A DNA stretch of 46,201 bases from Burkholderiaceae bacterium (GCA_041747615.1 JBGTEW010000047.1:1-46201); one strand, 5' to 3'. Counted from the first letter of the stretch, positions 984-22,045 are shown. The notes: generated from the letters alone by a model not told the origin. Numbers and translations are program-made.

Positions 984-990
984 GGGTCCT

Positions 991-1035
991 ACCGTCTGAG
1001 TTGAGCCGCGCTCGCAGAGCGTCGGCTCTCCAACG
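991..1035. repeat. REP-like hairpin element, copy b
   Basis: accGTCTGAGTTGAGCCGCGCTCGCAGAGCGTCGGCTCtccaacg. The hairpin core is 1003..1028. It sits between the stop of the 217-aa gene and the start of the 151-aa gene. Confidence 0.75.
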
Positions 1036-1047
1036 AAGAGTTATGCG

Positions 1048-1701
1048 TCACTTTCGATCCTCGCCTGCGAACCGAATGCCTTCTGGACGCTGAAACAAAG
1101 CTGGCTCAAACGGCAGCCCGGCTTCGTACTCCAGGTACTGAACTGCAACGCGTAGTTGACTGTCACGATGCAACTCAAGTCGGGACGGCGTGTCGGACCT
1201 TAGATACAGGTGAACGGATTCGTTCCCTTCGCTGTATTCCAGGCGCTCTACGGCGCCAAGTGTTTCGTGACGAACTTTCTTCCTCGCTGCACCTACAGAG
1301 GAAAGCCATGCTACTTCGCAACCGAACTCCAAGCTGTTGATGAATGTGCTCCGAATACTCGGATCACCGAAGATCGCGGCGCGAAAGCGGAAGGTGGGAC
1401 CTTGGTCGCGTTGGTAGTTACCGGTCTGGCTGACACGGTCGGCCACCCACAAGTGAGGCTCGTCGACCACGACGAGTAAATGAAGGCCCGATTCTGGGTT
1501 ACGGGCCTCTTCTATGCGTCCATAGCGCTCGCCATATCGGTAGAGGGTCTTCGGCACCCGCACAAAATGATCCCTACGAGCGCCAGGCACGTCTAAGGCC
1601 GTGACTACCCGAAGCATAGGCGAGGGCGCGCAGACACGATCGGCCGCGACCGCGACAACCGGAAGCATAGAAAGCACGGCAACGAGGAAGCGGAGGATCA
1701 T
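1048..1701 (-). CDS. secreted hypothetical protein (217 aa)
   Basis: ORF with a signal-peptide-like N-terminus MILRFLVAVLSMLPVVAVAA. No family recognised. Confidence 0.6.
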   Translation of the reverse strand: MILRFLVAVLSMLPVVAVAADRVCAPSPMLRVVTALDVPGARRDHFVRVPKTLYRYGERYGRIEEARNPESGLHLLVVVDEPHLWVADRVSQTGNYQRDQGPTFRFRAAIFGDPSIRSTFINSLEFGCEVAWLSSVGAARKKVRHETLGAVERLEYSEGNESVHLYLRSDTPSRLELHRDSQLRVAVQYLEYEAGLPFEPALFQRPEGIRFAGEDRK

Positions 1702-1711
1702 CTGTGACGTA

Positions 1712-1756
1712 TAACGTCTGAGTTGAGCCGCACTCGCAGAGCGTCGGCTTTCGCAC
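1712..1756. repeat. REP-like hairpin element, copy c
   Basis: taaCGTCTGAGTTGAGCCGCaCTCGCAGAGCGTCGGCTttcgcacgg. It directly abuts the truncated HAD remnant. Confidence 0.75.
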
Positions 1757-1761
1757 GGCGG

Positions 1762-1857
1762 ATGGACCTGCCTGCGGAGGAGGTGCTGTTCCTGGACGAC
1801 AGCCTAAGAAACGTGGAAGCAGCGCGATCCTTGGGGATAACGCCCATCTGGCGATGA
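1762..1857 (+). pseudogene. C-terminal remnant of a HAD-superfamily hydrolase
   Basis: Translation (AFARR)MDLPAEEVLFLDDSLRNVEAARSLGITPIWR* carries HAD motif IV (LF(L/I)DD...N..aA...G) but no N-terminal DxD core. The reading frame begins inside repeat copy c. A +1-shifted continuation NQEEARSVLETYGVV (to 1919) may be the original C-terminus. Confidence 0.6.
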
Positions 1858-2014
1858 ATCAGGAAGAAGCCAGGTCCGTACTTGAGACGTATGGTGTGGT
1901 GTCAACTCGCGACCGTTGATCGACGTATGGACTACTGGATCGACGAACTGAGCACTACCGGCCCATGAGCCGACATTCGCTGACGCGCCAATTTTCTGGC
2001 ACGAATCACGGGCA

Positions 2015-2452
2015 TCACACAGTGATCTTGCTATCGCCGCGGACATCAGCTTCGCCGCGCGCTGCTTCGACCAGCTCGGACAAAATTCCACAGCGGCGAG
2101 CCGACCGTGGTGTTTTGCAGCGGGCTCGGAGCGTCACGAGTTGCTTCTCCAAGGTCAATAGCGACTCAAGTCGGGCTCGTACACGCTGTAGTTGCGTGTC
2201 CACCAAGACGTCGGCTTCATGGCACGAGGATGCAGGGTGATCAATGAGTGCAAGCAGCCTCTTGATGTCCGCAATCGTCACATCCAGCGACCGGCAGTGC
2301 CTGATAAACGCCAGGCGTTCGACCTGCGCCGGACCATAAGAGCGGTAGCCGTTGGCACGTCTCCGAGGCGGTGGCAGAAGGCCCGCCTTCTCGTAGTACC
2401 GAACAGTTTCCACGTCAACGCCCGTGGCGTTAGCAACTTCACCAATACGCAT
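2015..2452 (-). CDS. cadR: MerR-family Cd(II)/Pb(II)/Zn(II)-responsive regulator (CadR/PbrR-like)
   Basis: MRIGEVANATGVDVETVRYYEKAGLLPPP...NGYRSY is the MerR wHTH. Metal-ligand cysteines sit at the expected positions (SSCHEAD and RRCGIL). It is divergent from a CDF transporter, with a MerR-type long-spacer promoter between them. Confidence 0.85.
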   Translation of the reverse strand: MRIGEVANATGVDVETVRYYEKAGLLPPPRRRANGYRSYGPAQVERLAFIRHCRSLDVTIADIKRLLALIDHPASSCHEADVLVDTQLQRVRARLESLLTLEKQLVTLRARCKTPRSARRCGILSELVEAARGEADVRGDSKITV

Positions 2453-2463
2453 TGAACCTCCGC

Positions 2464-2494
2464 TTGACTCTGTAGCTACTTCAGGGTTTGTAAT
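2464..2494 (+). promoter_or_regulatory. MerR-type promoter/operator (long spacer with dyad)
   Basis: TTGACT (2464..2469), a 19-nt spacer, then TGTAAT (2489..2494). The spacer holds the imperfect dyad ACTCTGTAGCTACTTCAGGGT, resembling PzntA/PpbrA/PcadA operators (cTTGACTCTatAG...). Confidence 0.65.
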
Positions 2495-2516
2495 CGTAGC
2501 GCCTGTGGAGGTGAAT

Positions 2517-3128
2517 GTGTCTGAGCAGTGTTGCCCAGTTAGTGCAGTCCCTGATGACAGCCGCCGCTATCGGCGCGTCCTGTGGATCGCGTTGGCGGTT
2601 AACGCCGTCATGTTCCTTGTGGAATTGGGGGCCAGTTTTCGCGCGGAATCAGCCGCGCTTCTGGCGGACGCCATCGATTTCGCGGGCGATGCTGGTAACT
2701 ATGGACTGTCGCTGGCGGCGATTGCGTTCGGGCCTGTCTGGCAGTCGCGTGCTGCACTGGTCAAAGCGACTTCAATGACAGCGTATGGAGTATTTGTGCT
2801 CGCCATGGCGAGTTGGGCTTTACTTAGCGGGTCACAACCCGAGCCTTTAACGATGGGGATCGTCGGTGTTGTCGCGCTGATCGCCAACGTCAGTGTCGCT
2901 GCGCTTCTATTCGCCTTCCGTGAAGGCAATGCGAACATGCGCTCGGTCTGGCTGTGCACTCGAAATGATGTAATTGGCAACATCGCAGTTCTTGCAGCAG
3001 CAATAGGCGTTTTCGGTACAGGTTCGCGTTGGCCCGATCTGCTGGTTGCCACGATCATTGCAAGTCTGGCAATCACCGCGGGGATTTCGACTCTGCGCCA
3101 AGCGCGACAGGAACTTCGTGCCACTTAA
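2517..3128 (+). CDS. cation diffusion facilitator (CDF) family divalent-metal efflux protein, short TMD-only form
   Basis: The track ORF 2424..3128 overlaps cadR and the promoter. I place the start at GTG 2517, 5 nt after GGAGG (2507..2511). Six hydrophobic segments and the CDF-like motifs LLADAIDFAGDAGNY and NMRSVWLCTRNDVIGN. Confidence 0.75.
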   Translation: MSEQCCPVSAVPDDSRRYRRVLWIALAVNAVMFLVELGASFRAESAALLADAIDFAGDAGNYGLSLAAIAFGPVWQSRAALVKATSMTAYGVFVLAMASWALLSGSQPEPLTMGIVGVVALIANVSVAALLFAFREGNANMRSVWLCTRNDVIGNIAVLAAAIGVFGTGSRWPDLLVATIIASLAITAGISTLRQARQELRAT

Positions 3129-3147
3129 ATCAAACGTAGAATCAGTG

Positions 3148-3579
3148 ATGCGCGGAGTGCGTCACCGCTCGCCATGGTCGTGGATGTTTTGCGCTTGGTT
3201 GATTGCAGTTGCTGCAACGCTTGGGAGTTTGTTCTTTAGCGAGGTGATGGGTCTGCCACCTTGCGTCTTGTGTTGATATCAAAGAATTTTCATGTTTCCT
3301 TTGGCGGCCATACTGACGTTAGCGTTTTTTCCATTCGACCTTGGTCATGTTCGTTACTCACTTGCACTCGCGTTAGGCGGGGCGTGCGTGGCTGTTTACC
3401 ACTGCCTGCTGTATGCGGGCCTGATTCCGGAGAATATTCAACCATGCAGTCAGGGCGTCTCATGCGCGGATCGAACTTCTCAACAGATCGCCGGACTACC
3501 GATACCGATGTTGTCGTTGGCTGCTTTTTTGATGATCATCGCTTTGTTGCTCGCAGCGCGAAGGGGAATGAGTAAATGA
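3148..3579 (+). pseudogene. DsbB/BdbC-family disulfide oxidoreductase interrupted by an in-frame TGA
   Basis: ORFs 3046..3276 and 3292..3579 are in the same frame. The joined product reads ...GLPPCVLC*YQRIFMFPLAAIL..., and TGA 3274..3276 sits exactly where the conserved Trp of the CxxCW(Y)QRI motif belongs. Confidence 0.7.
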
Positions 3580-4231
3580 GGCGGCAGACCATCGTCATAA
3601 CGGCTGGCATAGCTGTTTTGCTCTTGTTCTGACTGGGGACGTACACCTACAAGCGGCAGCAGGCGGAGCGGTCGGTCCAAGCGGCGACCCAAGGCAGCGC
3701 GGCACTGGTACGGTTTCATTCACCAACATACGGCGCGCCGGATGCAAAAGTCGAGCTTGTTGAATTTTTCGATCCTGCCTGTGAGACGTGCAGAAAGTTT
3801 TATCCAGTCGTTAAGGAAATCGTTGATTCGAGCGGCGGGAAGGTACGACTTGTCTTGCGATATGCAGCTTTCCACAAGGGATCAGACGAGGCGATCGCGA
3901 TATTGGAAGCGGCAAGAAGCAGCAGCGATTCTGGCCTGCAGTAGAAGCGGCTTTAGCTGCGCAGCCGCAGTGGGCTTCTCACTCCAATCCGCAGCCGGAA
4001 CTGATTTGGAAATACCTCGATGGGCTTGGCCTGGATGTTGAGCAAGCCAAGGCAGATGCACGTGATCCGCGCATCGCTACAAATCTGGAACAGGATCGCG
4101 CCGATTTGGTTGCCATGAACGTCAAAGCTACCCCGAGCTTTATTGTGAACGGAGTTCCGCTTGAGCAATTCGGCGTTGACGAACTCAAGACCCTCGTGCG
4201 CCGCGAAGTGGACAGGGCTTATAAGCAGTGA
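3576..4231 (+). pseudogene. DsbA/thioredoxin-fold (BdbD-like) oxidoreductase with an in-frame TGA and a frameshift
   Basis: ATG 3576 overlaps the dsbB stop (ATGA). The product reads MRRQTIVITAGIAVLLLF*LGTYTYK... with TGA at 3630..3632. The same frame continues ...VELVEFFDPACETCRKFYPVVKEI...ILEAA. The frame then shifts near 3912..3925 (gcaagaag) to KKQQRFWPAVEAALAAQPQW...NVKATPSFIVNGVPL...AYKQ*. Confidence 0.7.
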
Positions 4232-4266
4232 ATGGCGCGCAATCTAAAGAGACACAGGAGTGCTCA

Positions 4267-4635
4267 ATGACGAACTTTGGTAAAGCTATCCGACCGCACG
4301 TGCAGGCCGAGCTTTACGCCGCGCAAGAGGCGGAGGCGCAAGGTCAACCAGACGTCGCCTTTAGTCATATGGAAAGGGCACACGTCCTCGGTCAAGCCTC
4401 GACAATTGAGCACGTGCATATTCACTCGCGCATGCTTCTGTGGGGTTGGCGCCAACGCAGCTTTCGTGAATGCGTTGGGCAGGCCCTTCGCATTGCTGGC
4501 GCTGCTACAAAAACCGCGGTCGGGCTTGTGCCAGAGGGAAACACGGGTGGGTCGAACGTAAGCCCGTTCAAGCGCATGCCAATACCGCCTGAGCTTGAGA
4601 CAATAATTCGACGCGCTCGCTCGTCGCGCACTTGA
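4267..4635 (+). CDS. DUF3703-like protein
   Basis: ATG 4267 follows AGGAG (4256..4260). MTNFGKAIRPHVQAELYAAQEAEAQGQ...FSHMERAHVLGQASTIEHVHIHSRMLLWGWRQR...VPEGNTGGSNVS matches my memory of DUF3703, a family usually found in metal-resistance operons. Confidence 0.65.
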   Translation: MTNFGKAIRPHVQAELYAAQEAEAQGQPDVAFSHMERAHVLGQASTIEHVHIHSRMLLWGWRQRSFRECVGQALRIAGAATKTAVGLVPEGNTGGSNVSPFKRMPIPPELETIIRRARSSRT

Positions 4636-4645
4636 GAGTACCGAA

Positions 4646-4837
4646 GGTCCGCTTTAGAGCGATGCGAATGTCCCCAATGGGTCGAGGCCGTGTGAAAACG
4701 CGTCGACGTGACGTGTGACTTTTAAGTCGACCTCTCAGATCGCTCTGTGTTCAACGATCGACCCTTCGGGAATACCAAACCGACCCCCGAAAACGCGCAG
4801 ATTTTGCGTTTTCACACGGCCTCGGTCGAAAGCGGAC
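4646..4837. repeat. MITE-like palindromic element
   Basis: A 19-bp perfect inverted repeat, CGAGGCCGTGTGAAAACGC (4683..4701) against GCGTTTTCACACGGCCTCG (4806..4824). Outer arms are GTCCGCTTT (4647..4655) and AAAGCGGAC (4829..4837). No ORF inside. Confidence 0.6.
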
Positions 4838-5374
4838 ACGCATTGTCACTTTCAACCAAGTAATGCGTCCTAACAGGAAGACAAGTGCCGTGCCTTTTGT
4901 ACTTCTTCAAACCGCACCTCCGACCATCGCCACTTTTCCGCCGTTGTTGCTTCGGAACTGTTGTTGCTCAGCGTGCCGTAACGAGTATTTGAGTTTTGGT
5001 GGGGTCGACACGGCAGGAATCGAACTGCTAAAGCTCTTGAGAGCGGGCGCGACACGAGCGGACGTTAGGTGGCTGGCGTACCAAGAACATACCTCATGAG
5101 CACGCAGTACCCATCGTTGCCAATCACAGTCTGCGATACGCGGGGTGTAAACGCGATGGAATTGCATTCCGCTTTCAGACCCTGAGCTGCCGTTTGCACT
5201 TGCCGAAAGCGGACTCGCTGACTCGCTCAGAAACGGACACAGCATCGGTAATGACTGAGGCGTCGATCCTTCCGCTTTCGCCGCGGGTATAAGGAGGTTT
5301 GACATCGGCCGCACGGCAACGCGGGTTCGGTCACGTCAGCGTGGGCAGGACCGTTGTTAGCGAGAGGGGTTGCG

Positions 5375-7159
5375 ATGATAGACAAGGAGTTGCGACAACT
5401 CGTCGAACAAGTGCGCTACGGCAGCATGTCCCGTCGGCATTTCATCGATCGCATGCTGGGACTGGGTCTGAGCGCACCGATGGCCGGCCTGATGCTGATG
5501 GAACGCGGCGTCGCGCAGACGCCGGCCGCGTCCTACAAGCCCACGCGTCGCGGCGGTGGTGGGGTGCTGAAAATGCTGCAGTCGGCTGGCCCGACGCTGC
5601 TCAACCCCCACTTTGCGACCGGCCTCAAGGACAGCTTTGGCTCGCGCATCTTCTACGAGCCACTGGCGCAGTGGGATGCCGATGCGAACCTGCAGCCGGT
5701 GCTGGCCGCGGAGGTCCCCAGCCGCGAGAACGGTGGGCTGGCGGCCGACGGCCGCAGTGTCATCTGGAAACTCAAGAAAGGCGTGACCTGGCACGATGGT
5801 CAGCCCTTCACCGCCGACGACGTGATCTTCAACTGGCAGTACGCCATCGACGCGGCCACTGCTAGCGTGACCGCCGGCAGCTACGGCAACCTCAAGATGG
5901 AAAAAATCGACGCCCACACGGTTCGCGTCGTCTTCTCCAGGCCGACGCCGTTCTGGCCCGGCCAATATGCGCAGGTGATGCTGGTGCCCAGACACCTGTT
6001 TGCTCCCTATAGCAACGCAAAGTCGCGCGATGCGCCCAACAACAACAGGCCCGTGGGCACTGGTGCCTACACCTTCGTCGAATTCAAGCCCGGCGACTTC
6101 CTGCGCGCCGCACTCAACCCGAAATACCATGAAGCGAACCGCCCGCATTTCGACACGCTGGAATTGAAGGGCGGCGGTGACGCCACCTCGGCCGCCCGCG
6201 CGGTGCTGCAGACCGGTGAATACGACTACGCCGGCTCGCTGTTGGTCGAGGATGAGGTGCTCGCGCGCATCGAAGCCGGTGGCAAGGGCCGCGTTGAGTT
6301 CCTCAGCGGCAGCGCGACCACCGCCATCTACCTGAACCACGCCGATCCGCGCACCGAGATCGACGGCGAGCGGTCGCACCCCAAGACGCGCCACCCGCTG
6401 TTTAGCGACTCCGTTGTGCGCCGTGCAGTGGGGCTGCTGATTGACCGCCAGAACATCCAGGCCTACGTCTTCGGCCGGCAGGGCATGGCGACGGCCAATT
6501 TCCTCAACCACCCACCGCGTTACCGCAGCGCCAACACGGCATTCGAGTTCAACATCGACAAGGCCAAGGCGCTGCTCGACGCCGCGGGTTGGAAGCCGGC
6601 CGCCGATGGCGTTCGCGAGAAGGGTGGCAAGAAGCTGGCGCTGCTGTTCCAGGCCGCAAGCGGCGCCGTCGTGCAGAAGTACCAGGCCATCGTCAAGCAG
6701 GCGGCACAGAAAGCCGGCATCCAGATCGAATTGAAGGCGGTCGTATCCAGCATGTTCTTCTCGTCGGATGTAGGCAACTCCGACACTTACGGAAAGTTCT
6801 ACGCGGACATGCAGACCTACAACTGGACCAACAACAATCCGGATCCTGAAGGCCTGGTGCAGTGCTTCGTCTCGTGGGAAGTGGCATCGAAGGCCAACAA
6901 GTGGTTGGGACAGAACATGGTGCGCTGGCAGAGCAGCGAGTTCGACGCCCTGTTCCGCGCCTCAGAAGTGGAACTGGATCCGGTCAAGCGCGCAGCACTT
7001 TTCATCCGGATGAACGACCTGGTGGTCGCCGACGGCTACGTGCTGCCGATCATCGCCCGCACTTCGGCGCGAGCACTGAATCGGCGCCTCGTGGCGCCCT
7101 TGTCGGGCTGGCAGCTCGACACGGGGTCACTGCCTCACTGGTACCGCGAAGCCGGATGA
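5375..7159 (+). CDS. ABC-transporter substrate-binding protein, family 5 (peptide/nickel/opine type), Tat signal
   Basis: Long ORF. The N-terminus MSRRHFIDRMLGLGLSAPMAGLML has a twin-arginine motif, and the body has SBP_bac_5-like motifs throughout. The start is either ATG 5375 or the internal ATG encoding MSRRHF. Confidence 0.85.
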   Translation: MIDKELRQLVEQVRYGSMSRRHFIDRMLGLGLSAPMAGLMLMERGVAQTPAASYKPTRRGGGGVLKMLQSAGPTLLNPHFATGLKDSFGSRIFYEPLAQWDADANLQPVLAAEVPSRENGGLAADGRSVIWKLKKGVTWHDGQPFTADDVIFNWQYAIDAATASVTAGSYGNLKMEKIDAHTVRVVFSRPTPFWPGQYAQVMLVPRHLFAPYSNAKSRDAPNNNRPVGTGAYTFVEFKPGDFLRAALNPKYHEANRPHFDTLELKGGGDATSAARAVLQTGEYDYAGSLLVEDEVLARIEAGGKGRVEFLSGSATTAIYLNHADPRTEIDGERSHPKTRHPLFSDSVVRRAVGLLIDRQNIQAYVFGRQGMATANFLNHPPRYRSANTAFEFNIDKAKALLDAAGWKPAADGVREKGGKKLALLFQAASGAVVQKYQAIVKQAAQKAGIQIELKAVVSSMFFSSDVGNSDTYGKFYADMQTYNWTNNNPDPEGLVQCFVSWEVASKANKWLGQNMVRWQSSEFDALFRASEVELDPVKRAALFIRMNDLVVADGYVLPIIARTSARALNRRLVAPLSGWQLDTGSLPHWYREAG

Positions 7160-7621: not shown

Positions 7622-10600
7622 TCATACAATCGCCGCGCACAGCTTGGCAATCTCTTGCCGAAGCTCCGAGCCCGGCTCGGCACCCATTGCTGCCGCCGCC
7701 GTTTCAGCCGAGGCGAGCGCGGCACGAGCGGCGTCTAGGTCACCGCCAAGGGCCTCCATCCTCCCTCGAATGCAGCGGAATTTGGCGAGCTGCAGCCGGT
7801 CGCCAACCTTACGAAGGACCGCCTCACCCGACCGGAGCGTGTCGCCGGCGTCATCAACCCGCCCTTGCCCGATCAGTAGATTCGCCAGATTGCCGAGAAC
7901 TCTGCCCTCCTCGTTGAGGTTGCCCACCTGGCGGTGGATGCCAAGGGCGGCCTCGTAGTGGGCGCGTGCTTCCTCCAGTCGCCCCTGCTTGTAGAGCAAC
8001 AGGCCCAAATCACCAAGCACGTTGCCCTCGAAGCGTCGATTACCCACCTCGCGATGAATAGCGAGCGCCTGGTCGTAGTACTTTCGCGCACCCTCATAAT
8101 CTCCCTGCTCTTGATGCACGGTGCCCAAGTTGCCGATGACCACGCTCTCGAAGCGACGGTTACCCGCCTCGCGGTGGACGGCCAAGGCTTGAGCGTACTG
8201 AACTCGTGCGTCTTCCATCCGACCTTGTTCGCGGTGCAGCTCGCCGAGGTTGCCGAGGACTCTTCCCTCTTCGTTGCGATTGCCCACCTCGCGATGGATG
8301 GCGATAGCCGCGTCGAAATGCGCGCGTGCTTCTTCCAACGCGCCTTGCATTGTGCGTAGCAGACCAAGGTTGCCGAGAACGGTGCCTTCAAGGTGGCGAT
8401 CTTGGACTTCGCGGCTAATGGAAAGGGCAGCCTCGAAGTGTTCGCCTGCTTCCTCCATCCGGCCTTGTTCGCGCCGGAAGTTACCCAAGCTAACGAGGAC
8501 TTTTCGTTCCAGGCGCGTGCTGCGCAACTCGCGCGCGAGAACGAGCGCCTGCTCGAAGCATGTTTCTGCCTCCTCCATACAGCCGGCGCGTTGCGCGGCT
8601 AGTGCTTTGGTGAACAGCGCTGCGGAGCGCAGCGAAGAACCGACTCCGCAGATGGCGAGCAACTGCGCTCCGAGTTGGACGGCCAGCGCGTACGGCCCCT
8701 GCAGGTCCAGCACTTCCCACGATGCCCGGTACGCTGCTACGGCGATCTCTGCGTCACTGCGACGTACGGCGCGTCGGCTGGCAGCGATGAGATTGTCCAG
8801 CTCTAAAGCGAGCGAGCGTTGTCTTTTGACGCCGCCGTGGCGGCGCAGCGCCTCGAGTGCCTCATCTGTGCCGAAGCTAGCGAAGTATCGTCCGTGTCGC
8901 TCCTCGGCCGACCTTTCCGGCTCAAGCCCGCTCGCCTTGAGTTTTTCCGCGGCGTAGTCACGGATGCTGACGTACATCCCAAAATAAGGCTCTTCTATGA
9001 CGAAGCGGCCTTGCGCCGCGGGCACCCAAGTGCGGAGCAGGCTCTTATCGACGAGCGCCTGCACCACGTCCATGGCTGATGGGGCATCGGACCACGCAGA
9101 AAGATCGAGCACCGCCTCCGCCGCTTCCAGCGTGAAGCCGCCCTCGAACATCGAGCACTGGGCGAGTGCCGCCTGCTCCCAGGGGGTGAGCAGGTCCCAT
9201 GACCAGTCGATTGCGGCTCTGAGCGTGGCTTGGCGCGCCCCCGAGCCGCGGGCATCAGCGAGTAGACGGAAGCGGTCGCGCATTCTCTCAACAATCTGAG
9301 CTGGGGACAGTACCCGCACCCGTGCCGCTGCGAGCTCGATTGCGAGCGGCAGTCCATCGAGCAGACGAACTGCCTCTGTAACAGCTGCGCGGTTGGCGTC
9401 GCTAAGGACAAACTCCGGTCTTTGCGCGCGAGCGCGCGCGCTGAAGAGCTCGATGGCTTCCTTTTCTAAAGGCAGCGGCTCGATGGGCAAGATCTCCTCG
9501 CCCGACAAATGAAGCCGCTCGCGACTGGTGACGATAAAGGCTGCGTCGGCAGCGCGGTCGAGCCAGTGGCCGAGGGTGGTCGCGGCATATCCAAGGATCT
9601 GCTCGAAATTGTCGAGAATGAGCAGACAGTGCCCGCGGCCCGCAATCGCTTCGCCCAGTTGCACGCCAAGATCATCTTTGCCGAGAGGAACTTCAAGCGC
9701 GGAGGCGACAGCGAAGAAGATCCCATCGAGTGAGCGGGCCTCAGAAAGATCGCAAAAGTAGACGCCGCCGGCCCAGTCACCAAGCCACGTCCAGCCGTAG
9801 CGACGCACGAATCGCGTCTTTCCGGTGCCGCCCGGGCCGAGGACAGTGAGCAACCGAGCGCCAGCGTCCAGCCGAGCAGCGAGCGTGCGCAACTCTGCTG
9901 TTCGGCCGACGAACGCATCGCGCTCGCCAGGAAGGTTGTGACGTACCTCGCGCACCGGGCGCCAGAGGTCGCCCGTCCGGACCACGCGGTACGCCTTGTC
10001 CGCGTCCGGCGGCGGGGAGAATGGAGCCAATCCACGCACGCCCAACTCGAAGATCTCGACGGGTGCGTCGAGTCCTTTCAGTCGGTAATGCCCGTGAGCT
10101 TCGATCTCTGCATCCTCCGGAAGTACATCGCCGAGCGCCGTCCGCGCAGCGGCGGTTAGGAGCGTCTGCCCACCGCACGCCAGCGCCATAACGCGGGCAG
10201 CGAGCGGTTTGGCAAGGCCCTCGACCTCCGTCTGCTTGGCGCCGCGAGCAATGTCGTCAGGAACGTTCTCGTGCAGTGTGACCGGGCCTACGTGAAGCCC
10301 CGCGCGGGCGTGAAGCGCGATCTTTGCAAGTGCCTCGTGATATGCAAGCGCGAAGCGAGCTGCGTCAGCTGGGTCGTCGAACAGTAGGAAAAATCCATCC
10401 GTGCGATCGATCTCGCGCCCACAATGTTGGGCGAGCAGGTCGCGCGCGCTGCGGTCATGCGCGGCCCACGCCTCCGCGCTACGTTCATCGCCCAACCGCT
10501 CAACCAATAGCGTGCTATCAACAACGTCAGTGAAGAGAAGGCCGCGTTGAGTTACTTGCCGCACGCTGTAATCAACTCGCGGGCGCGTGAACACAGCCAA
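7622..10600 (-). CDS. class-III adenylate/guanylate-cyclase domain + STAND P-loop NTPase + TPR-repeat protein (992 aa)
   Basis: aa 20-190 are cyclase-like (LLFTDVVDST, RTDGFFLLF, RAGLHVGPV, LAARV...GGQTLLT). Walker A LGPGGTGKT is at nt 9815..9838, followed by LLILDNFEQ (Walker B-like). aa ~620-960 hold about 8 TPR_12-type 40-aa repeats (LGNLG...G..eeA...y..AL.I.RE.G.R). The start is TTG 10600 or GTG 10594. Confidence 0.85.
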   Translation of the reverse strand: MAVFTRPRVDYSVRQVTQRGLLFTDVVDSTLLVERLGDERSAEAWAAHDRSARDLLAQHCGREIDRTDGFFLLFDDPADAARFALAYHEALAKIALHARAGLHVGPVTLHENVPDDIARGAKQTEVEGLAKPLAARVMALACGGQTLLTAAARTALGDVLPEDAEIEAHGHYRLKGLDAPVEIFELGVRGLAPFSPPPDADKAYRVVRTGDLWRPVREVRHNLPGERDAFVGRTAELRTLAARLDAGARLLTVLGPGGTGKTRFVRRYGWTWLGDWAGGVYFCDLSEARSLDGIFFAVASALEVPLGKDDLGVQLGEAIAGRGHCLLILDNFEQILGYAATTLGHWLDRAADAAFIVTSRERLHLSGEEILPIEPLPLEKEAIELFSARARAQRPEFVLSDANRAAVTEAVRLLDGLPLAIELAAARVRVLSPAQIVERMRDRFRLLADARGSGARQATLRAAIDWSWDLLTPWEQAALAQCSMFEGGFTLEAAEAVLDLSAWSDAPSAMDVVQALVDKSLLRTWVPAAQGRFVIEEPYFGMYVSIRDYAAEKLKASGLEPERSAEERHGRYFASFGTDEALEALRRHGGVKRQRSLALELDNLIAASRRAVRRSDAEIAVAAYRASWEVLDLQGPYALAVQLGAQLLAICGVGSSLRSAALFTKALAAQRAGCMEEAETCFEQALVLARELRSTRLERKVLVSLGNFRREQGRMEEAGEHFEAALSISREVQDRHLEGTVLGNLGLLRTMQGALEEARAHFDAAIAIHREVGNRNEEGRVLGNLGELHREQGRMEDARVQYAQALAVHREAGNRRFESVVIGNLGTVHQEQGDYEGARKYYDQALAIHREVGNRRFEGNVLGDLGLLLYKQGRLEEARAHYEAALGIHRQVGNLNEEGRVLGNLANLLIGQGRVDDAGDTLRSGEAVLRKVGDRLQLAKFRCIRGRMEALGGDLDAARAALASAETAAAAMGAEPGSELRQEIAKLCAAIV

Positions 10601-14910: not shown

Positions 14911-14980
14911 TTGGCTGCAACGGGTCCCATCCGTTCATCGTCGATGAGTCGCACCCCCCATGCGGGATGGAGATCGAGTG
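14911..14980 (+). repeat. structured repeat family, copy C1
   Basis: ttggctgcaacGGGTCCCATCCgTTCATCGtCGATGAGTCGCAcccccccaTGCGGGATGGAGATCgag. It shares the blocks GTCCCATC, GAGTCGCAC, a C-run and GGATG(A/G)G with C2 and C3. Confidence 0.55.
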
Positions 14981-15118
14981 TATTTGAAGAGCAAACCCAA
15001 TTGCTTTTGCAAAGAGCCTAGTCATTTGATCTTCCCGAGTCGTCGCTAATTATTCTGAATCAAAACGCTGGCCAACGGGAGGCCGCTCGTCGCCGCGAAT
15101 CGAACGGATGATGGAAGT

Positions 15119-15205
15119 GTTGCCCTCAATGGGTCCCATCTACGCATCGCCAAAGAGTCGCACTAATGTCTATGTGAACTCGACCTGGGGGTGGATGAGG
15201 CTCAC
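15119..15205 (+). repeat. structured repeat family, copy C2
   Basis: gttgccctcaatGGGTCCCATCtacgcatcgccaaaGAGTCGCACtaatgtctatGTGaactCGACctggGGGTGGATGAGGCTCAcg. It ends about 100 nt upstream of the PPase-like gene. Confidence 0.55.
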
Positions 15206-15306
15206 GTGGAACTCATAAACAAGCAATACCGCGAGTCTCGCTGCTTCGCCACGACTAGCTCGGGGTGCTCACCAGTTATCAATTCGCTATCAGCGTAGGC
15301 TGACCT

Positions 15307-15816
15307 GTGATCCAAGCTATTCAAAGGCAATTCTGTGAGCAAGCTGTGCTCGACATTCCCGAAGTCGATGTGGTCATAGAAGTTCCGAAGGGCTCCTTTC
15401 TAAAACGTGGGTCCTCGGGCCACATCGATTTCATCTCACCGTTGCCGTGTCCATTCAACTACGGTTCGGTACCGAAGTATTTAGGACTGGAGGGCGACCT
15501 TCTGGACGCGGTGGTACTCGGTCCCCGCTTGCCGCTCGGGGCTTCGTTGCGAGTCATGGCCTGGGGAGCCGTGGCTTTGGTGGATCGCGGTATGACCGAC
15601 CACAAGCTAGTTTGCAGCGAACTTCCGGTAGGGGTTAGAGAGCGTAGGAGGCTGCTACGGTTCTTCGCCTTTTATGCGAAATGCAAGTGGTTGCTGAATG
15701 TAGTGCGACGCCAGCCGGGCCGGAATGCGTGCGACGGGTGGTTGGACGCCTCGCAAGCACTGAGTTGCGCTCAGCCGAGAGATGACACTTGGCGCGGGCC
15801 ATCGGTCCCGTTCTGA
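15307..15816 (+). CDS. family-I inorganic-pyrophosphatase-like protein (169 aa)
   Basis: VVIEVPKGS...PFNYGSVP...EGDLLDAVVL...VDRGMTDHKLV...FYAK aligns by eye to E. coli Ppa (VVIEIPAN...PCNYGYI...DGDPVDVLV...MTDEAGEDAKLV...HYK). The GTG start at 15307 is uncertain. Confidence 0.65.
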   Translation: MIQAIQRQFCEQAVLDIPEVDVVIEVPKGSFLKRGSSGHIDFISPLPCPFNYGSVPKYLGLEGDLLDAVVLGPRLPLGASLRVMAWGAVALVDRGMTDHKLVCSELPVGVRERRRLLRFFAFYAKCKWLLNVVRRQPGRNACDGWLDASQALSCAQPRDDTWRGPSVPF

Positions 15817-15834
15817 TACGACTGCATGGAGGTC

Positions 15835-15920
15835 TTTTGCCTAATGCGTCCCATCCGTGTCGGATACGTCACCCCCCCCGTGCGCAATGGAAATTGACCC
15901 GAAGGTGGATGAGGCTCAGG
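15835..15920 (+). repeat. structured repeat family, copy C3
   Basis: ttttgcctaatGCGTCCCATCCGtgtCGGATacGTCACccccccccGTGcgcaatggaaattgacccgaaGGTGGATGAGGCTCAgg. It starts 19 nt after the PPase-like stop and lies about 300 nt upstream of the 763-aa gene. Confidence 0.55.
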
Positions 15921-16218
15921 CTGGAGTCTCACGCGCGACGATGCCCGAATCAGCGTTGAACTAATCGACTAGGCACTCAGTGTCTGCTTGCGGACCCCAA
16001 GCGGCAGTTCACCATTGTCCGCTATCGGGCATCCGAACGCTCCGTGATCTCGCACGACGATGCCCGCCCACCGCAGGGAGGACGCCCTTAGTTTGAGCCG
16101 GAGAAGGCAAGTTTGATCCGACGCGACCGTCGCGCAGCTGGCCAGTCCGCGCCAACAGGATCCGGCTGATAGCATCGCAGCTCCCGACCCCACGCTTCTA
16201 CTACCGAGGAAGCACCCG

Positions 16219-18510
16219 GTGAATCCCACAGTGCGTCAGACCCTCGAACTGCTCGATTGTCAGTTCGCTCGGGATGGCGGTCTCTCGTACGCCACACTCG
16301 AGAAATCACTCGAGCAGGCGCGTCAGGCCGGCGATCTTGAAGGTGAAGCCGACCTAGCGCTGCAGATGGCGGTTCGACTGTCATCGATGGCCACGTTCGC
16401 GGCGATGCTGGCGCGCCGCGGACAAGAGCTGCCGGGGATGCCAACGGCGGCCGAAGCGCTTGAACCTGCGATCCCTCTTCTCGAGCGGGCGGTGGGGCTC
16501 GCCGCGACCACAGTGAATGGCAAACGCGAGACATTCGCGCGAAACCGTCTCGCCGACTGCTACATGCAGTCCGAGCAGTTCGAGAAGGCGACGGCGGAGT
16601 TCGCCAAAGCCCTCGAGCAGTGTCACATGCGAGAGGACGCGGCGCTGGCGTTCGACACGGTACAGAAGATGGGCGACTGCCATCTGCAGCTCGAGCAGGA
16701 CGCCGCTGCCCTTTCCGCGTACGAGCGAGGTCTGGAGATGGCCAAAGAGATCGACGACCCGTTCGAAATCCATGTTCAGCTCGGAAAGATCGCCAGCGCC
16801 TTGAACAACTTGAAGCGGTACGACGAGGGTCTCGCTCATTACACGGAGGCCCGCGATCTTTTGAAGCGTATTGCGGTCGACCCGGCCCTCCAACAACGAG
16901 TTTCGGTTCACAAGAACCTGTTCAACGTGGACGCCCTGCCAGGTCTCATTGCGTATACAGAGGAGCGGATCTCTCATACCCGAGAGGCGCTTGGCCGCGA
17001 CCTCCTGCGCGAGCTGCCCCATCGCTTGGCGTCGATTTCATCGGCGGCGCTGACGGCGCAGGCGGTTCCCGATCTGTCTGGCTGGCCAGTGTTTCGTGAA
17101 TTGAACCGAGCCGTGCGGGCAGCGGTTGCCGTCCTGAGCGGCATGCTCGACCTCCCGCTCGGTAAACAGGCCACTGACGACTCGGAGGCCAGAACACTGA
17201 AGCTGGTTGGCGACTTCGCCCGTCGAACTGTGGATCCTGCTGTCCGCGATCCGCAATCGCTCATGAACGCCACTCGCTATGTCATGCAGGTCGACCGGTC
17301 GCGCCGCGCCGCCATCCATCTTCGCAGGGCAGAAACCAGCGCCGCGATGCCGGGGCCGTTCGGCGGCGGCACTTCGCCACACGCGCTCTATCTCCGGTCG
17401 TTCGCCGCCACGCCGCACCTGCCACGTGTCGTCATGGAGCCCTGGGGCTTATTGGACCTCGAGGAGGTGCTGGCGTGCCGCTTCGACGAATCGCCGCTGA
17501 TTGCGCTCGGCAATCCAGAACTCGAACGATTCGGTCCGGGTCGCTCGACGACAACCGATGATAACTGGCGCGCGGTTCTCCGCGCGCTGGCCATGGAAGC
17601 GCAAATCATCATTGTCATCCCGACGCACACGCAAGGCACGTCCTGGGAGATCGAATGGGTCACGACCAACAAGTTCTTGCACAAGACGTGCTTCCTAATG
17701 CCGCCGCTCGGGCCCGGCGACGAGGTGTGGTGGGCGGACAACTGGCGTGAACTCAAGAATTGGGCGATCCGCTTCGGGTTCAATCTTCCGGACTACACGC
17801 CGAACGGATCCGTGTTCAGATTGACTTCCGAAGGGCAACTCGACGAGATCGACTTCTCAGTGATCTACGGCGACGACGACTTAAAGTTGCCGCTGATGTA
17901 CCGGCTGTTGTTCCGAACCAATCTTTCGTGGGATTTCGCGTACGGCATTCAGCAAAGCCTGAAAGCGGATCGGGCCCGCGGCGCCATCGAGGCTTGGTCA
18001 GCCGCTACAGATCATTCGAACGAGGCGCTTGGAGGTTTGCCGCCACAAGACCAGACCATGCTGGCGGCGCTCGAAGCTTCGAACCGTCTTGAGATGTCGA
18101 ACTGGTTTTACGACGCACCACAAGTTCCGGGCGAGCCCGGCGTCCTCATGTATTTCGAAAACCCATTTCGGATGATGTGGGCTGAAGCCGTGGACAACTT
18201 GAACGAGACGCTCTGCCATCATTCTGAGGGTGCGGTGAGCGGCTTTACCCGCACTTTGTTTCATCTGAAAGTCCTGAACCGCCTGACGCCCCAGCAAGTC
18301 GATCAGCTCACGAGGAAAACGCTGACCATCGAATCGATCATGAGCTTTCAGGTGAAGCAAATACTGTCGTATAGATTCGTAGTCGTGAAGGATCCAGCCA
18401 GTCGACAACGAATCGCCGAGGCGATTGTGAAGGGCGCTTCGAAACACGGCGTCCCGGAGTTCCCCCGCCCCAGCCATCGCGACGAAGCCGATCCGCGAGA
18501 CTTGTCGTAG
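16219..18510 (+). CDS. 763-aa protein: TPR-like N-terminal region + TIR/NDT-like (flavodoxin-fold) middle domain + orphan C-terminal region
   Basis: GTG 16219 lies 7 nt after GAGGAA. aa ~100-215 are TPR-like helical pairs. aa ~388-540 (nt 17380..17838) read LYLRSFAATP...LIALGNPELERFGPG...NWRAVLRALAMEAQIIIVIPTHTQGTSWEIEWV. The domain assignment comes from motif order only. Confidence 0.7.
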   Translation: MNPTVRQTLELLDCQFARDGGLSYATLEKSLEQARQAGDLEGEADLALQMAVRLSSMATFAAMLARRGQELPGMPTAAEALEPAIPLLERAVGLAATTVNGKRETFARNRLADCYMQSEQFEKATAEFAKALEQCHMREDAALAFDTVQKMGDCHLQLEQDAAALSAYERGLEMAKEIDDPFEIHVQLGKIASALNNLKRYDEGLAHYTEARDLLKRIAVDPALQQRVSVHKNLFNVDALPGLIAYTEERISHTREALGRDLLRELPHRLASISSAALTAQAVPDLSGWPVFRELNRAVRAAVAVLSGMLDLPLGKQATDDSEARTLKLVGDFARRTVDPAVRDPQSLMNATRYVMQVDRSRRAAIHLRRAETSAAMPGPFGGGTSPHALYLRSFAATPHLPRVVMEPWGLLDLEEVLACRFDESPLIALGNPELERFGPGRSTTTDDNWRAVLRALAMEAQIIIVIPTHTQGTSWEIEWVTTNKFLHKTCFLMPPLGPGDEVWWADNWRELKNWAIRFGFNLPDYTPNGSVFRLTSEGQLDEIDFSVIYGDDDLKLPLMYRLLFRTNLSWDFAYGIQQSLKADRARGAIEAWSAATDHSNEALGGLPPQDQTMLAALEASNRLEMSNWFYDAPQVPGEPGVLMYFENPFRMMWAEAVDNLNETLCHHSEGAVSGFTRTLFHLKVLNRLTPQQVDQLTRKTLTIESIMSFQVKQILSYRFVVVKDPASRQRIAEAIVKGASKHGVPEFPRPSHRDEADPRDLS

Positions 18511-19101: not shown

Positions 19102-19452
19102 TCACTCGGATTCAGAAGGGCGTCGCCAGAATTGCCCAGATGAATAAATGCGACCGTGTGGGTGGACATCCTCATAGAACGGCGGAGTCGGTGCACCAGT
19201 TCGCTCTGCTTCTGGGTCGTCGCGAAGACGCCCAAAATCGTTGGCGCGCAACTCACTTTCTGCTTCCGGCCAAGAGACGAACTGCATGCGATCGAACACG
19301 CCTGAACGTTCGTGAAAAAAGTAAGCGATACAGCCCTCGACTGAGGAGTCGTCCACGAGTGCCCAATTGGTCTGGTGGTTTTCCAGTGTCTTGTACCAGT
19401 AATCGCGGCTCTCGATCGGGACCTCGAGGCGTGCTTCGCTCGGCCGCCTCAT
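19102..19452 (-). CDS. conserved-looking small hypothetical protein (116 aa)
   Basis: ATG 19452..19450 overlaps the upstream stop 19451..19449 (ATGA). MRRPSEARLEVPIESRDYWYKTLENHQTNWALVDD...YFFHERSGVFDRMQFVSWPEAESELRANDFGRL...HPHGRIYSSGQFW. The track offers an alternative start at 19506. Confidence 0.5.
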   Translation of the reverse strand: MRRPSEARLEVPIESRDYWYKTLENHQTNWALVDDSSVEGCIAYFFHERSGVFDRMQFVSWPEAESELRANDFGRLRDDPEAERTGAPTPPFYEDVHPHGRIYSSGQFWRRPSESE

Positions 19453-20194
19453 CGCCTGGTTCCGCACAAGTCGCTTACTAGATGCCAAGAGTAATTCCCT
19501 GGCCACCTTGTGGCCAGCGCCTTACAAACCTCCAGATCGTGTTCGGTGCCGTCGAATATTAGGAAGGCTCTCGTTGTCCCGCGGAGTGCGCGCACAACGT
19601 AGCTAGGTCGGTAGCCCCCGGCAACTTGGATGCGGTCGCACAGACTGCTTAACTCGATGAGGTTGCCCCCCTTCATGCGGCCTTGATGGTGATACACGAT
19701 GACAGTACGTCCCTTTCGCCGCATCTCGCACAGCTCCGAAAAGAGAACGTACTTACGCGCGGCATGCTTCCCGACGCTGAAGGTGTCAGTTCGCAAGCCG
19801 TTGTCCGGATCAAGAGAGACTAGATCACAATCTTTCAGCGTCGCCTTAACATCGTTGAACCATGAAACCCGCTGACTTTGGCGGTTCCGCCAATTTTCTG
19901 GATGGGGATCGGCTTGTCGGCGAAGGTCACGTTGTCAAAGATGCTCGAGGCTTGTACTGCGTCGAGCTTGCGCTGACCAGCCTCAACGATCCCCCGCAAT
20001 GTGTCGTAAACGGTCGGGTCGACACCGCTCCATCGTTTGGGCTGGTTCAAATAGCTTGTGTGCTTCCCATCGGCATTGTGATTCTCATCTGTCACACGGT
20101 ACCAAGCGATGCCTAGGGCGCGCGTCCTTTGCAACCGCCGGAGAAGTGCGTACTTCAAATAGTCGCCGATGTCGCCAACGTAACGGTCTTGCAC
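19449..20194 (-). pseudogene. frameshifted gene of unknown family (N-terminal GDIGDYLKYALLR motif, later LDPDNG motif)
   Basis: The N-terminal ORF 19835..20194 (MQDRYVGDIGDYLKYALLRRL...PIPIQK) and a second frame open from about 19900 (..NWRNRQSQRVSWFNDVKATLKDCDLVSLDPDNGL...YHHQGR...) overlap. Adding one A to the AAAA run (plus-strand TTTT 19894..19897) fuses them as ...IPIQKNWRNRQ.... Confidence 0.6.
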
Positions 20195-20400
20195 TGGCCG
20201 CGGAGCCCGCGGCGTTTCCTTGTCCGCAGGTCTCAGGAGATTTTGATCGTAGGATTGTTACCGGTTTTGCGCCACGATGGGTACTGGCTTCCCATGTCCG
20301 CATTTGGCTCATGCTTCCAGACAGTCGCTTCGCGCAATGCGCCCCAGGAGATCTTGTTCGGATTGTTCGATCATGCTCAATAACAACTTAAACTTAGTAT

Positions 20401-22045
20401 GTGCGTAGCAGAAACCCGTCTGTGGAATCGTACAACTACGTCATTGTCGGGGCCGGTTCCGCCGGGTGTGTTCTGGCGAATCGACTGTCTGCGGATCACA
20501 GTGCGAGAGTTCTGCTTCTAGAAGCAGGCTCTCAGGACGACTACATCTGGATTCACATACCAGTGGGTTACCTGTTCACGATAGGTAACCCTCGCACCGA
20601 CTGGTGCTACCGAACCGTTGAGGAGCCGGGCTTGAACGGGCGATCAATTGGTTATGCGAGAGGAAAAGTTCTTGGCGGCTGCTCGTCAATCAACGCGATG
20701 ATTTACATGCGCGGTACCAGTGACGACTACGACCAATGGCAAGCACTCGGAAGTCCTGGCTGGTCTTGGGCAGACGTTCTTCCCATTTTCAAGCGCTGCG
20801 AGGACTTCTGCCATGGAGCAGATGACTTCCATGGCATTGGCGGCGAGCTACATGTCGAAGAACGGCGCGTCAGCTGGGATGTCCTTGACGCATGGCGCGA
20901 CGCTGCCGAGGAGTGCGGAATTCCGAAGATAAGCGAGTTCAACAGAGGAAACAATTTTGGAAATGCTTATTTTCAGATGAATCAACGAAAAGGGGTGCGC
21001 TGGAGCAGCGTGCGCGCATACCTGGACCCTGCTTCCAAGCGGCCCAACCTGTCGGTTCAGACGCATGCTCATGCGCATCGAATCACCTTTACAAAGTCGG
21101 ATGGTCGGCTGCGTGCAACTGGTATCGAATACTCTCATCCGAAACTTGGAACAAAGAATCGCTCTAGCGAGGCGCGAGACCATCCTTGCAGCAGGCGCAA
21201 TCGGTTCGCCACAGCTTTTGCAATTGTCCGGCATAGGACCGTTGGACTTGCTGACGTCGCTGGAGATACCTGCGATTTGCGAGCTGCAGGGAGTTGGAGA
21301 GAACTTGCAAGATCATCTTCAGATTCGAATGCAGTACAAGGTGCACGGCGTTCGAACCCTCAATGAATTGGCAAACAGCCACGTCGGGAAGCTGTTGATG
21401 GGTCTCGAGTACATGCTCTTCCGAACCGGGCCTCTAACGATGCCGCCATCTCAACTTGGCGCGTTCGCGAAGAGTGACCCTCTTCAGTCAAGGCCCAATA
21501 TCGAATGGCACGTTCAGCCGCTATCGCTAGATAAGTTTGGTGACAACTTACATCCGTTTCCTGCAATAACGCCTTCAGTATGTAATCTGCGGCCGACAGC
21601 CCGGGGGCAGGTTCGTATCAAGTCGCCCGACGCCACGAGCCACCCTGAAATAAGACCGAACTATCTGTCGACCAGTGAAGATCTGCGAGTCGCGGTGGAT
21701 TCAATACGATTCACGCGAAAAATCATGGCTGCCAGAGCGTTCGCTAAATACGCTCCTGAAGAGTTCCGGCCAGGTGTAGCGGCGCAAACAGAAGCAGAGC
21801 TCGCACGTGCGGCCGGCGATTTGGGAACAACGATATTTCATCCGGTTGGCACATGCAAAATGGGAAATGATTCGATGGCGGTTGTGGACGAACGTCTTCG
21901 TGTTCGTGGAATCGAAGGATTACGCGTTGTGGACGCGTCTATCATGCCGCTCATTACGTCGGGCAACACGCATGCGCCGACTGTAATGATTGCGGAGAAA
22001 GCAGCCGAGATGGTTGTCACGGATAGCAAAATCACCGCGGGCTGA
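20401..22045 (+). pseudogene. GMC-family FAD oxidoreductase (choline/alcohol dehydrogenase-like), frameshifted
   Basis: N-terminal part: YNYVIVGAGSAGCVLANRLS, GKVLGGCSSINAMIYMRG. C-terminal part in another frame: ILAAGAIGSPQLLQLSGIG...HPVGTCKMG...VVDASIMP. The frames meet near 21145..21165, and removing one A from acaaag gives GIEYSHPKLGTRIALARRETILAAGA. Confidence 0.75.

Follow-up and report, generated by a model that had tools for sequence, protein, structure and literature searches.

Many Thoeris effectors with new domains have recently been validated (bioRxiv 10.64898/2025.12.03.692087). Among the proteins described in this preprint is ThsI, the effector of type VIII Thoeris, which combines a cytidine monophosphate (CMP) hydrolase with a tetratricopeptide repeat (TPR) architecture and is activated by cyclic ADP-ribose (cADPR) made by a TIR protein. 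TIR, DRHyd/NDT and SLOG domains are regarded as one related fold group (PMC7159879). Here we analyze a protein whose architecture recalls that of ThsI. It is encoded in a stretch of 46,201 nucleotides (nt) from a Burkholderiaceae bacterium (GCA_041747615.1, JBGTEW010000047.1:1-46201), which we call the window. Two neighboring genes at positions 15,307 to 18,510 had originally been predicted, from the sequence alone, to form an undescribed nucleotide-targeting conflict module, made up of an inorganic pyrophosphatase (PPase)-like protein (gene 1) and a 763-residue TPR protein with a central domain similar to TIR or nucleoside 2-deoxyribosyltransferase (NDT) domains (gene 2). Our analysis separates the two genes, which adjoin by accident, and directs attention to gene 2. 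We put at roughly one in two the probability that gene 2 encodes a mobile TPR-sensor protein that acts on its own in biological conflict, of the anti-phage or abortive infection type, with a central domain that acts on or binds nicotinamide adenine dinucleotide (NAD+) or nucleotides.

Gene 2 is not a ThsI, but ThsI is its nearest architectural analogue. Both proteins have a TPR array and a Rossmann-like α/β domain with a strand-loop-aromatic-Glu motif, and for some relatives of gene 2 (loci L019 and L028 in our numbering) a TIR gene is directly adjacent. Unlike ThsI, gene 2 has its TPRs at the N-terminal end, so that the order of the domains is reversed, its TPRs are not of the PF20308 (TRAFs-binding) type, it has an additional GIY-YIG-like domain, and there is no adjacent ThsB-type TIR gene in the window. 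BLASTP comparison of gene 2 with ThsI gave nothing, and hhalign of the superfamily profile of the central domain (see below) against a ThsI NDT-domain profile of 118 sequences gave a score of 13.3, inside the null range. An hhalign run against a single plasmid ThsI sequence, which is an insensitive test, was negative as well. None of the effector annotations in Table S2 of the preprint (bioRxiv 10.64898/2025.12.03.692087) fits the architecture of gene 2, and its tables do not contain a GIY term. The effector from which the NDT-domain profile was built is a 402-residue NDT-like plus PF20308 TPR protein, encoded upstream of a TIR gene in a type VIII-like operon on an Escherichia coli IncP conjugative plasmid (L034; NZ_CP147111.1, record 569-4339). 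This operon is adjoined by a second TIR gene and a gene for a DUF4231 protein.

Results

Gene 2 is a rare and mobile single-gene unit

The two open reading frames (ORFs) of the original prediction were borne out in position, size and common orientation, and are separated by a spacer of 402 nt. Both genes and the domains of gene 2 are located in the window as follows (aa, amino acid positions):

15307..15816, + strand: gene 1, 169 aa, GTG start; divergent family-I pyrophosphatase-like protein
16219..18510, + strand: gene 2, 763 aa, GTG start; TPR, helical linker, central α/β domain and GIY-YIG-like domain
16462..16869, + strand: TPR repeat region of gene 2, aa ~82-217; Pfam and PADLOC TPR matches; presumably senses a trigger or mediates protein interactions
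17341..17898, + strand: central α/β domain of gene 2, aa 375-560; defines a large unannotated superfamily
17647..17649, + strand: codon of E477; this Glu is invariant and a candidate for a catalytic or ligand-binding role
18028..18465, + strand: GIY-YIG-like domain of gene 2, aa ~604-749; AlphaFold2 (AF2) and Foldseek

The gene 2 family is small, with 20 clusters among 5.8 billion, and was found at only 2 loci in 185,579 species genomes and at 15 metagenome loci. Its orthologues are 82-87% identical. At the DNA level, the identity is 87% for L001, from a metagenome-assembled genome (MAG) of Acidobacteriaceae, and about 87-92% for L019-21. In these comparisons, the DNA likeness begins at the start codon and stops within the gene, with unrelated sequence in the flanks. 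The presence of gene 2 orthologues in unrelated flanks indicates that gene 2 moves as a single gene. In L001, the flanks contain transposases of the insertion sequence (IS) families IS91 and IS110 as well as integrases. An integrase also flanks the relative of gene 2 in L004, and rve-type IS copies are present in L019 and L026. Distant relatives were detected in Streptomyces and in an Acidimicrobiales MAG, and the overall distribution is sporadic and patchy. Gene 2 is a rare, horizontally mobile and self-contained accessory unit that consists of a single gene.

Two variations of the family architecture were seen at other loci. A shorter variant of 498 aa (L024-L027, e.g. L026:4710-6206) consists of the central and the GIY-YIG-like domains without the TPR N-terminus, and is flanked by several rve-type IS copies. 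In L005, the central domain occurs a second time, in a diverged form (1837-2946, + strand, E 2e-10) directly 5' of the gene 2 relative, which makes the two a tandem paralogue pair.

The TPR-like helices that had been noticed at aa ~100-215 of gene 2 are indeed TPRs, at aa ~99-217. TPR_12, TPR_2 and TPR_8 exceed their Pfam cutoffs at aa 107-177, and the generic PADLOC TPR model matches at aa 99-217 (E 6e-4). The Pfam types in gene 2 are generic ones only (TPR_1, TPR_2, TPR_8 and TPR_12), and outside the TPR region there is no other match in Pfam, NCBIfam or PADLOC. In the family alignment, the conserved core comprises YLRSF (391-395), E415, ALG (429-431), W450, P468, GTSWEIEW (473-480), K489, MPP and WW (504-505). 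The motifs YLRSF, ALG and GTSWEIEW, on which the original description of the central domain was built, are real and form the most conserved part of the alignment.

The central domain belongs to a very large superfamily

With a profile of the central domain, an exhaustive HMMER search detected 4,804 representative clusters at a threshold of E<=1e-3, and 1,142 when the threshold was tightened to E<=1e-10. No Pfam, NCBIfam or PADLOC model covers this superfamily, and Pfam matches in 17 members of the gene 2 family and in 100 superfamily members are confined to fused repeats. The PADLOC model PDC-M72A came up for ankyrin-fused relatives and was discarded, as its matches span the ankyrin repeats only. 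The commonest architecture in the superfamily is a protein of ~300 aa, with one to three N-terminal transmembrane helices followed by the domain, and there are also fusions to ankyrin and TPR repeats.

Across 46 diverse members, the residues R393, F395, W450, L457, P468, E477, P495, W509, P524 and G530 (gene 2 numbering) are invariant. Either E477 or E479 had been put forward as the catalytic Glu of the central domain. The conservation singles out the former, which is invariant throughout the superfamily, but not the latter. As judged from the alignment, the invariant Glu, Arg and Trp residues suggest a conserved active site or ligand site. An AF2 model of the domain (predicted local distance difference test, pLDDT, 79; predicted template modeling score, pTM, 0.81) has a TIR-like layout, β-α-β-loop-α-β-α-β-α. 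The model was built from 17 sequences only, and structural comparisons that depend on it are hence not final.

Resemblance of the central domain to TIR, NDT and SLOG domains

For profile-profile comparisons, TIR profiles were prepared from 46 verified ThsB/TIR sequences (Table S1 of bioRxiv 10.64898/2025.12.03.692087 plus two neighboring TIRs). The hhalign comparison of the superfamily profile with the TIR profile gave E 7.2e-4, a probability of 26% and a score of 26.7, with 54 columns aligned over αB-βC-αC-βD. None of the 60 block-shuffled nulls reached this score (their maximum was 24.5 and their median 15.3), and neither did the reversed profiles, with 15.3. In four of four hhalign sub-tests, E477 is placed on the catalytic Glu of TIR domains, an assignment that rests on a weak alignment. 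The global alignment is collinear and puts LYLR on TIR βA, but it is also weak (P 0.008). Against the two neighboring TIRs alone, hhalign returned a probability of 0.45%, and a TIR hidden Markov model built here did not match the central domain. A comparison of the superfamily profile with a LOG protein, E. coli PpnN, gave nothing in a single-sequence test, which is insensitive.

Among TIR domains, the likeness is mainly to the ThsB type (PF08937/PF13676). It consists of the collinear order of β-strands and α-helices, of a first strand LYLRSF that resembles vFISHS of βA, of a conserved Trp in the helix ahead of the third strand, and of the alignment of E477 with the catalytic Glu. Unlike TIR domains, the central domain adds a β-hairpin after strand 1, a helix with the pattern MPP...WW...W and a C-terminal β-hairpin (all in the AF2 model). 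The domain also recalls NDT and LOG-SLOG proteins (DxGTxxE and PGGxGTxxE), since it has P-x4-G-T-x-W-E after a β-strand, and the NDT structure 2A0K is among its weak matches in the Protein Data Bank (PDB).

The C-terminal domain is probably a degenerate GIY-YIG-like module

The ~220 C-terminal residues of gene 2 had been thought to be an orphan region. AF2 and Foldseek place a GIY-YIG-like fold there. The AF2 model has a pLDDT >90 over aa ~604-749, and nearly all top Foldseek matches in the PDB are GIY-YIG domains, namely 2LWF and the N-terminal domains of UvrC (probability 0.93-1.00; target-normalized template modeling (TM) score 0.53-0.70). The best values are a probability of 1.0 for 2LWF and, for UvrC 1YD6_C, a target-normalized TM score of 0.70 with a root mean square deviation of 2.9 Å. 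At the sequence level, there is no Pfam GIY-YIG match, and the sequence-profile match to 2LWF reaches only E=2.

The pattern PG(I/V/L)x...W(V/A)x...NLxxxLxxH of the gene 2 family echoes GIY...YIG...R..H of GIY-YIG nucleases such as UvrC and AtGRXS16 (2LWF). In contrast to these nucleases, the gene 2 domain has an extra helical insertion between α1 and β3. Most family members have other residues in place of the catalytic Tyr, Tyr, Arg and Asn of GIY-YIG nucleases, and the acidic catalytic position is only semi-conserved. In the window protein, with the motifs GVL, MWAE and NLNETL, the two Tyr and the Arg are replaced by Leu, Trp and Thr and the Asn is lacking, and GIY or GLY is kept only in the distant members P0019 and P0020. 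Because the catalytic residues are replaced in most members, the domain is probably a degenerate GIY-YIG-like module and not a canonical nuclease.

Relatives of gene 2 occur near TIR and other defense genes

Several relatives of gene 2 have TIR genes as neighbors. In L019, a short TIR_2 ORF (3448-3882, E 2e-16) is translationally coupled to the 82%-identical gene 2 orthologue (L019-21), the end of the one overlapping the start of the other in ATGA, and a second TIR-containing ORF lies further downstream (8492-10558). The first of these ORFs, which spans only 90 of 122 profile positions, may be a decayed gene. In L028, a TIR_2-FGE-sulfatase fusion (1823-3448, - strand) is 1.2 kb from a central-domain protein of 738 aa (4710-6926, + strand; also in L029), in which the central domain is N-terminal and is followed by ~480 aa of unknown sequence. 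A TIR_2 gene is also present on the P0010 contig. The TIR profile gave no match in the PPase control loci (~52 kb), in E. coli K-12 or, in any frame, in the 46-kb window.

Other neighbors of relatives include an LmuB_C fragment (Streptomyces context) and an AAA_13/SMC-type ATPase (L004 context). In L013 (3059-6491), an ankyrin-fused superfamily member adjoins two genes for CHAT (caspase-like) proteases, one of which is TPR-fused. Altogether, PADLOC matches among 77 neighboring ORFs of relatives were to LmuB, KwaB, PDC-S06, MADS, AriA and TIR models, a tally that covers these ORFs only. No obvious defense neighbors were seen in L005, L022 and L010. The conflict-system flavor that had been attributed to the locus finds support in the contexts of its relatives, with their TIR genes, defense genes and mobile elements, but not in the neighbors of gene 2 in the window, which are metabolic or miscellaneous genes.

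Gene 1 is a resident PPase-like gene

Gene 1 reaches 35.4 bits with Pfam PF00719 (gathering cutoff 23.5), over aa 23-103 and profile positions 2-90 of 153 only. With the NCBIfam PPase equivalogs, it scores 28.4 and 25.1 bits, far below the cutoffs of 246 and 200. It aligns to solved PPases across aa 19-105. With family-I soluble inorganic pyrophosphatases (PF00719), gene 1 shares the N-terminal β-barrel core with the metal-binding Asp cluster and Lys, and it retains the equivalents of E. coli PPase E20, K29, Y55, D67, D70, D97, D102 and K104. Unlike them, it has Glu for D65, Gly for E31 and Phe for R43, so that the full catalytic and substrate-binding set is incomplete, and its C-terminal ~65 aa, including the Y141/K142 region, cannot be aligned. 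The alignment confirms the residues that had been picked out before, both the kept motifs and the missing equivalents of the KYE Glu and Arg43.

The gene 1 family contains >5,000 clusters at E<=1e-3, which are named inorganic diphosphatase and come mostly from Betaproteobacteria/Burkholderiaceae MAGs. Gene 1 is an ordinary resident gene with no functional tie to gene 2, a divergent family-I PPase-like hydrolase typical of its lineage. As the metal Asp/Lys core is kept and two substrate-contacting residues are gone, its substrate may be other than plain pyrophosphate. On two large contigs that are unrelated to each other, the PPase-like gene has a SIR2-family gene at a distance of ~1 kb or less (L006:6223-7053 and L008:9026-9832), and a small ORF of 100-121 aa comes after the PPase. 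SIR2 and the small ORF may be a conserved neighborhood of the PPase-like family.

The two genes do not recur as a pair. According to tblastn, the PPase-like gene is absent from all loci with a gene 2 relative, ~15 of them independent, and was found only in loci that had been fetched via the PPase itself. The called-gene lists of five gene 2 homologue contexts contain no PF00719 protein and, conversely, no gene 2 relative is present in four PPase-family contexts, in which the downstream neighbors varied. Moreover, the sizes of the two families are ~250-fold apart (~20 for gene 2, >5,000 for gene 1). The co-occurrence check, which the original prediction had itself named as grounds for giving up the two-gene module, shows no recurrent pairing in either direction and refutes the module on these grounds.

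A repeat of the PPase neighborhood

The original prediction had each gene preceded by a copy of the same diverged, structured repeat. The diverged repeat is real, but it is present in three copies, two 5' of gene 1 and one after its stop codon:

14911..14990, strand not applicable: repeat copy A, 5' of gene 1; folding z -0.06
15120..15215, strand not applicable: repeat copy B, 5' of gene 1; 75% identity to A (44 nt) and 83% to C (29 nt); folding z -0.48
15835..15935, strand not applicable: repeat copy C, directly after the gene 1 stop codon and 5' of gene 2

The claim of structure had to be given up. For all copies and both strands, the folding z values relative to dinucleotide shuffles are between -1.0 and +0.4, no better than chance, and Rfam has no match to the copies at gathering or permissive thresholds, even at E<=1. 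The repeat core CAACGGGTCCCATC...CATCGCCGA.GAG.CGCAC recurs at L012:2627-2665, 50 nt downstream of a PPase homologue on another metagenome contig, in a locus that does not contain gene 2. The repeat therefore belongs to the PPase neighborhood of the lineage and does not link the two genes.

Discussion

Together, our data suggest a model in which gene 2 acts alone. Because its widespread and unannotated central domain is often found near immune genes, gene 2 is perhaps an undescribed anti-phage protein. The TPR array would sense a trigger, either a protein or a ligand. The central domain, predicted to adopt a Rossmann-like fold of the TIR/NDT/SLOG class, would respond through E477 and R393, which might cleave the N-glycosidic bond of NAD+ or of a nucleotide, as TIR enzymes do, or might bind such a nucleotide. 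The degenerate GIY-YIG-like domain could bind nucleic acid or mediate assembly.

A number of results argue against this model. Pfam models for TIR, TIR_2, ThsB_TIR, NDT and LOG do not match any of the 17 gene 2 family members even at E<=10, and the same TIR models detect the true TIRs that neighbor relatives at E 2e-16 and 9e-23. The hhalign probability of 26% is far from the 97-99% that true TIR subfamilies reach with each other. Sequence-profile searches of the PDB with the family and superfamily profiles returned only de novo TIM-barrel designs, which were picked up via the repeated β-α unit and rejected as spurious. Foldseek comparison of the central domain with the PDB and BFVD found nothing significant (best E 0.18 in both, TM<=0.38). 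As weak signs in favor of a TIR/NDT-like fold, the lists of non-significant matches are mainly flavodoxin-like or Rossmann-like and contain the TLR1 TIR domain (E 0.2, TM 0.29-0.33), ThsB (9B7D; E 0.26-0.30, TM 0.25-0.27), ArsH, NDT 2A0K and the Argonaute MID domain, and NDT-superfamily proteins account for 11 of the 50 top BFVD matches, none of them individually significant (E>=0.18). Also against the model, PADLOC-DB v2 has no system-specific match to either gene and offers just its generic TPR model. The window neighbors of gene 2 include no recognized defense gene and no TIR, and TIR neighbors are found in only ~3 of 15 independent contexts of relatives. Members of the gene 2 family were likewise missing from the phage, plasmid and viral collections, of which the first two were searched by tblastn with the central domain and the viral contigs were scanned, so that there is no direct link to mobile-element conflict.

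What stands of the TIR-or-NDT-like character that had been proposed for aa 388-540 is the collinear order, the invariant Glu and the hhalign E of 7e-4; Pfam gave no match, Foldseek gave no significant one, and similarity to the ThsI NDT domain was not found. The TIR/NDT-like reading of the central domain is plausible but unproven, a lead rather than a result. A more ambitious proposal is that the superfamily is an unrecognized branch of the TIR/NDT/SLOG group in immunity, either as a new type of NAD+- or nucleotide-cleaving effector or as the receptor of TIR-made signals in a Thoeris-type family that is yet to be described. We consider this proposal tentative and its truth possible. In that case, gene 2 would be the variant with TPRs and, as its output, a repurposed GIY-YIG-like domain, and other outputs would be transmembrane helices and ankyrin/TPR scaffolds.

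Several alternatives have to be weighed against a solo conflict protein. It is doubtful that gene 2 has a role outside of conflict, with a central domain that serves as a scaffold without enzymatic activity or has an ordinary role in metabolism or regulation, anchored in the membrane in most relatives. Gene 2 would then act as an accessory scaffold protein with TPRs, and the variety of its contexts would simply stem from its place in the flexible genome. The lack of a significant match to any enzyme fold or family, the metabolic or miscellaneous surroundings in the window, and the loci L005, L022 and L010 without obvious defense neighbors all fit this explanation. However, it does not account for the invariant set of Glu, Arg and Trp residues, which suggests a conserved active or ligand site, for the recurrence of TIR, LmuB, KwaB, CHAT, integrases and IS elements as neighbors, or for the sporadic and patchy phyletic pattern, which is typical of conflict genes.

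Alternatively, the central domain might bind a nucleotide signal made by a TIR protein, like the SLOG domain of ThsA, and thereby activate a fused output, which would be the GIY-YIG-like domain in gene 2 and the transmembrane helices in the ~300-aa relatives. The copy in the window would then be an orphan effector. The ATGA coupling between the TIR_2 ORF and the L019-21 orthologue, a further TIR at that locus, and the TIR genes close to relatives in L028 and on the P0010 contig, speak for such a Thoeris-like effector. The common combination of transmembrane helices with the domain is reminiscent of membrane effectors in types II, V, VI and VII of Thoeris, and the recent validation of Thoeris effectors with new domains (bioRxiv 10.64898/2025.12.03.692087) is also in its favor. 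Nevertheless, we regard it as unlikely, since the window and L001 lack a TIR despite orthologues that are 82-87% identical, TIR neighbors are limited to the ~3 of 15 contexts, and the L019 TIR, with its 90 of 122 profile positions, is perhaps decayed. Furthermore, there is no homology to ThsI, the GIY-YIG-like output is without catalytic residues, and Table S2 of the preprint holds no annotation that matches the architecture.

The two-gene module of the original prediction, in which the PPase might for example process the product or substrate of the effector, is by far the least credible explanation. The two genes are adjacent, co-oriented and 402 nt apart, and the PPase-like protein is atypical in that it lacks the E31 and R43 equivalents. 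On the other hand, PPase-like proteins are missing from every locus with a gene 2 relative, the PPase family is found in many ordinary contexts that lack gene 2, the DNA likeness of gene 2 orthologues is confined to the gene, and the common repeat is found beside a PPase homologue that lacks gene 2 as well. The pair of PPase and effector, which would have represented a novel type of system, does not exist.

What gene 2 reveals instead is a domain superfamily of very large size with an invariant Glu/Arg/Trp signature, which is not contained in any public profile library, and whose fusions to transmembrane helices, ankyrin and TPR repeats are typical of immune proteins. If the domain were an enzyme of the TIR class or served as a receptor for TIR signals, then thousands of proteins would join the bacterial immune repertoire, with a new effector type in TIR signaling. 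If it is not related to immunity, it is still a sizeable family in need of a model and a name.

Other features of the window

Both genes had been assigned to a low-GC patch. The GC content is indeed lower in gene 1 (0.576) and in the flanks (0.53-0.57), but gene 2, with 0.608 (0.728 at third codon positions), is at the window mean of 0.604. A promoter and terminator scan of the region was uninformative, with no operon signal in the 402-nt spacer between the genes. ARAGORN called a 92-nt tRNA-Asp in this spacer (15940-16031, - strand), which is a probable false positive, as Rfam shows no tRNA even at E<=1; without Rfam support for the tRNA, we do not postulate a tRNA integration site.

Upstream of gene 1, at 7622-10600 (- strand), the window encodes a STAND-type NTPase of 992 aa (AAA_22/nSTAND5) that carries a long array of TPRs. 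Over ~396 aa, it shares 34% identity with a neighbor of the gene 2 relative in L004, a likeness that could be a coincidental TPR/MalT-like similarity. Downstream of gene 2, the regions 19449-20194 (- strand) and 20401-22045 (+ strand) hold two small adjoining ORFs that resemble one frameshifted gene and have no Pfam or PADLOC match, and a GMC oxidoreductase that is broken into two overlapping ORFs. The broken ORFs at 19449-22045 are either pseudogenes or errors of long-read assembly.

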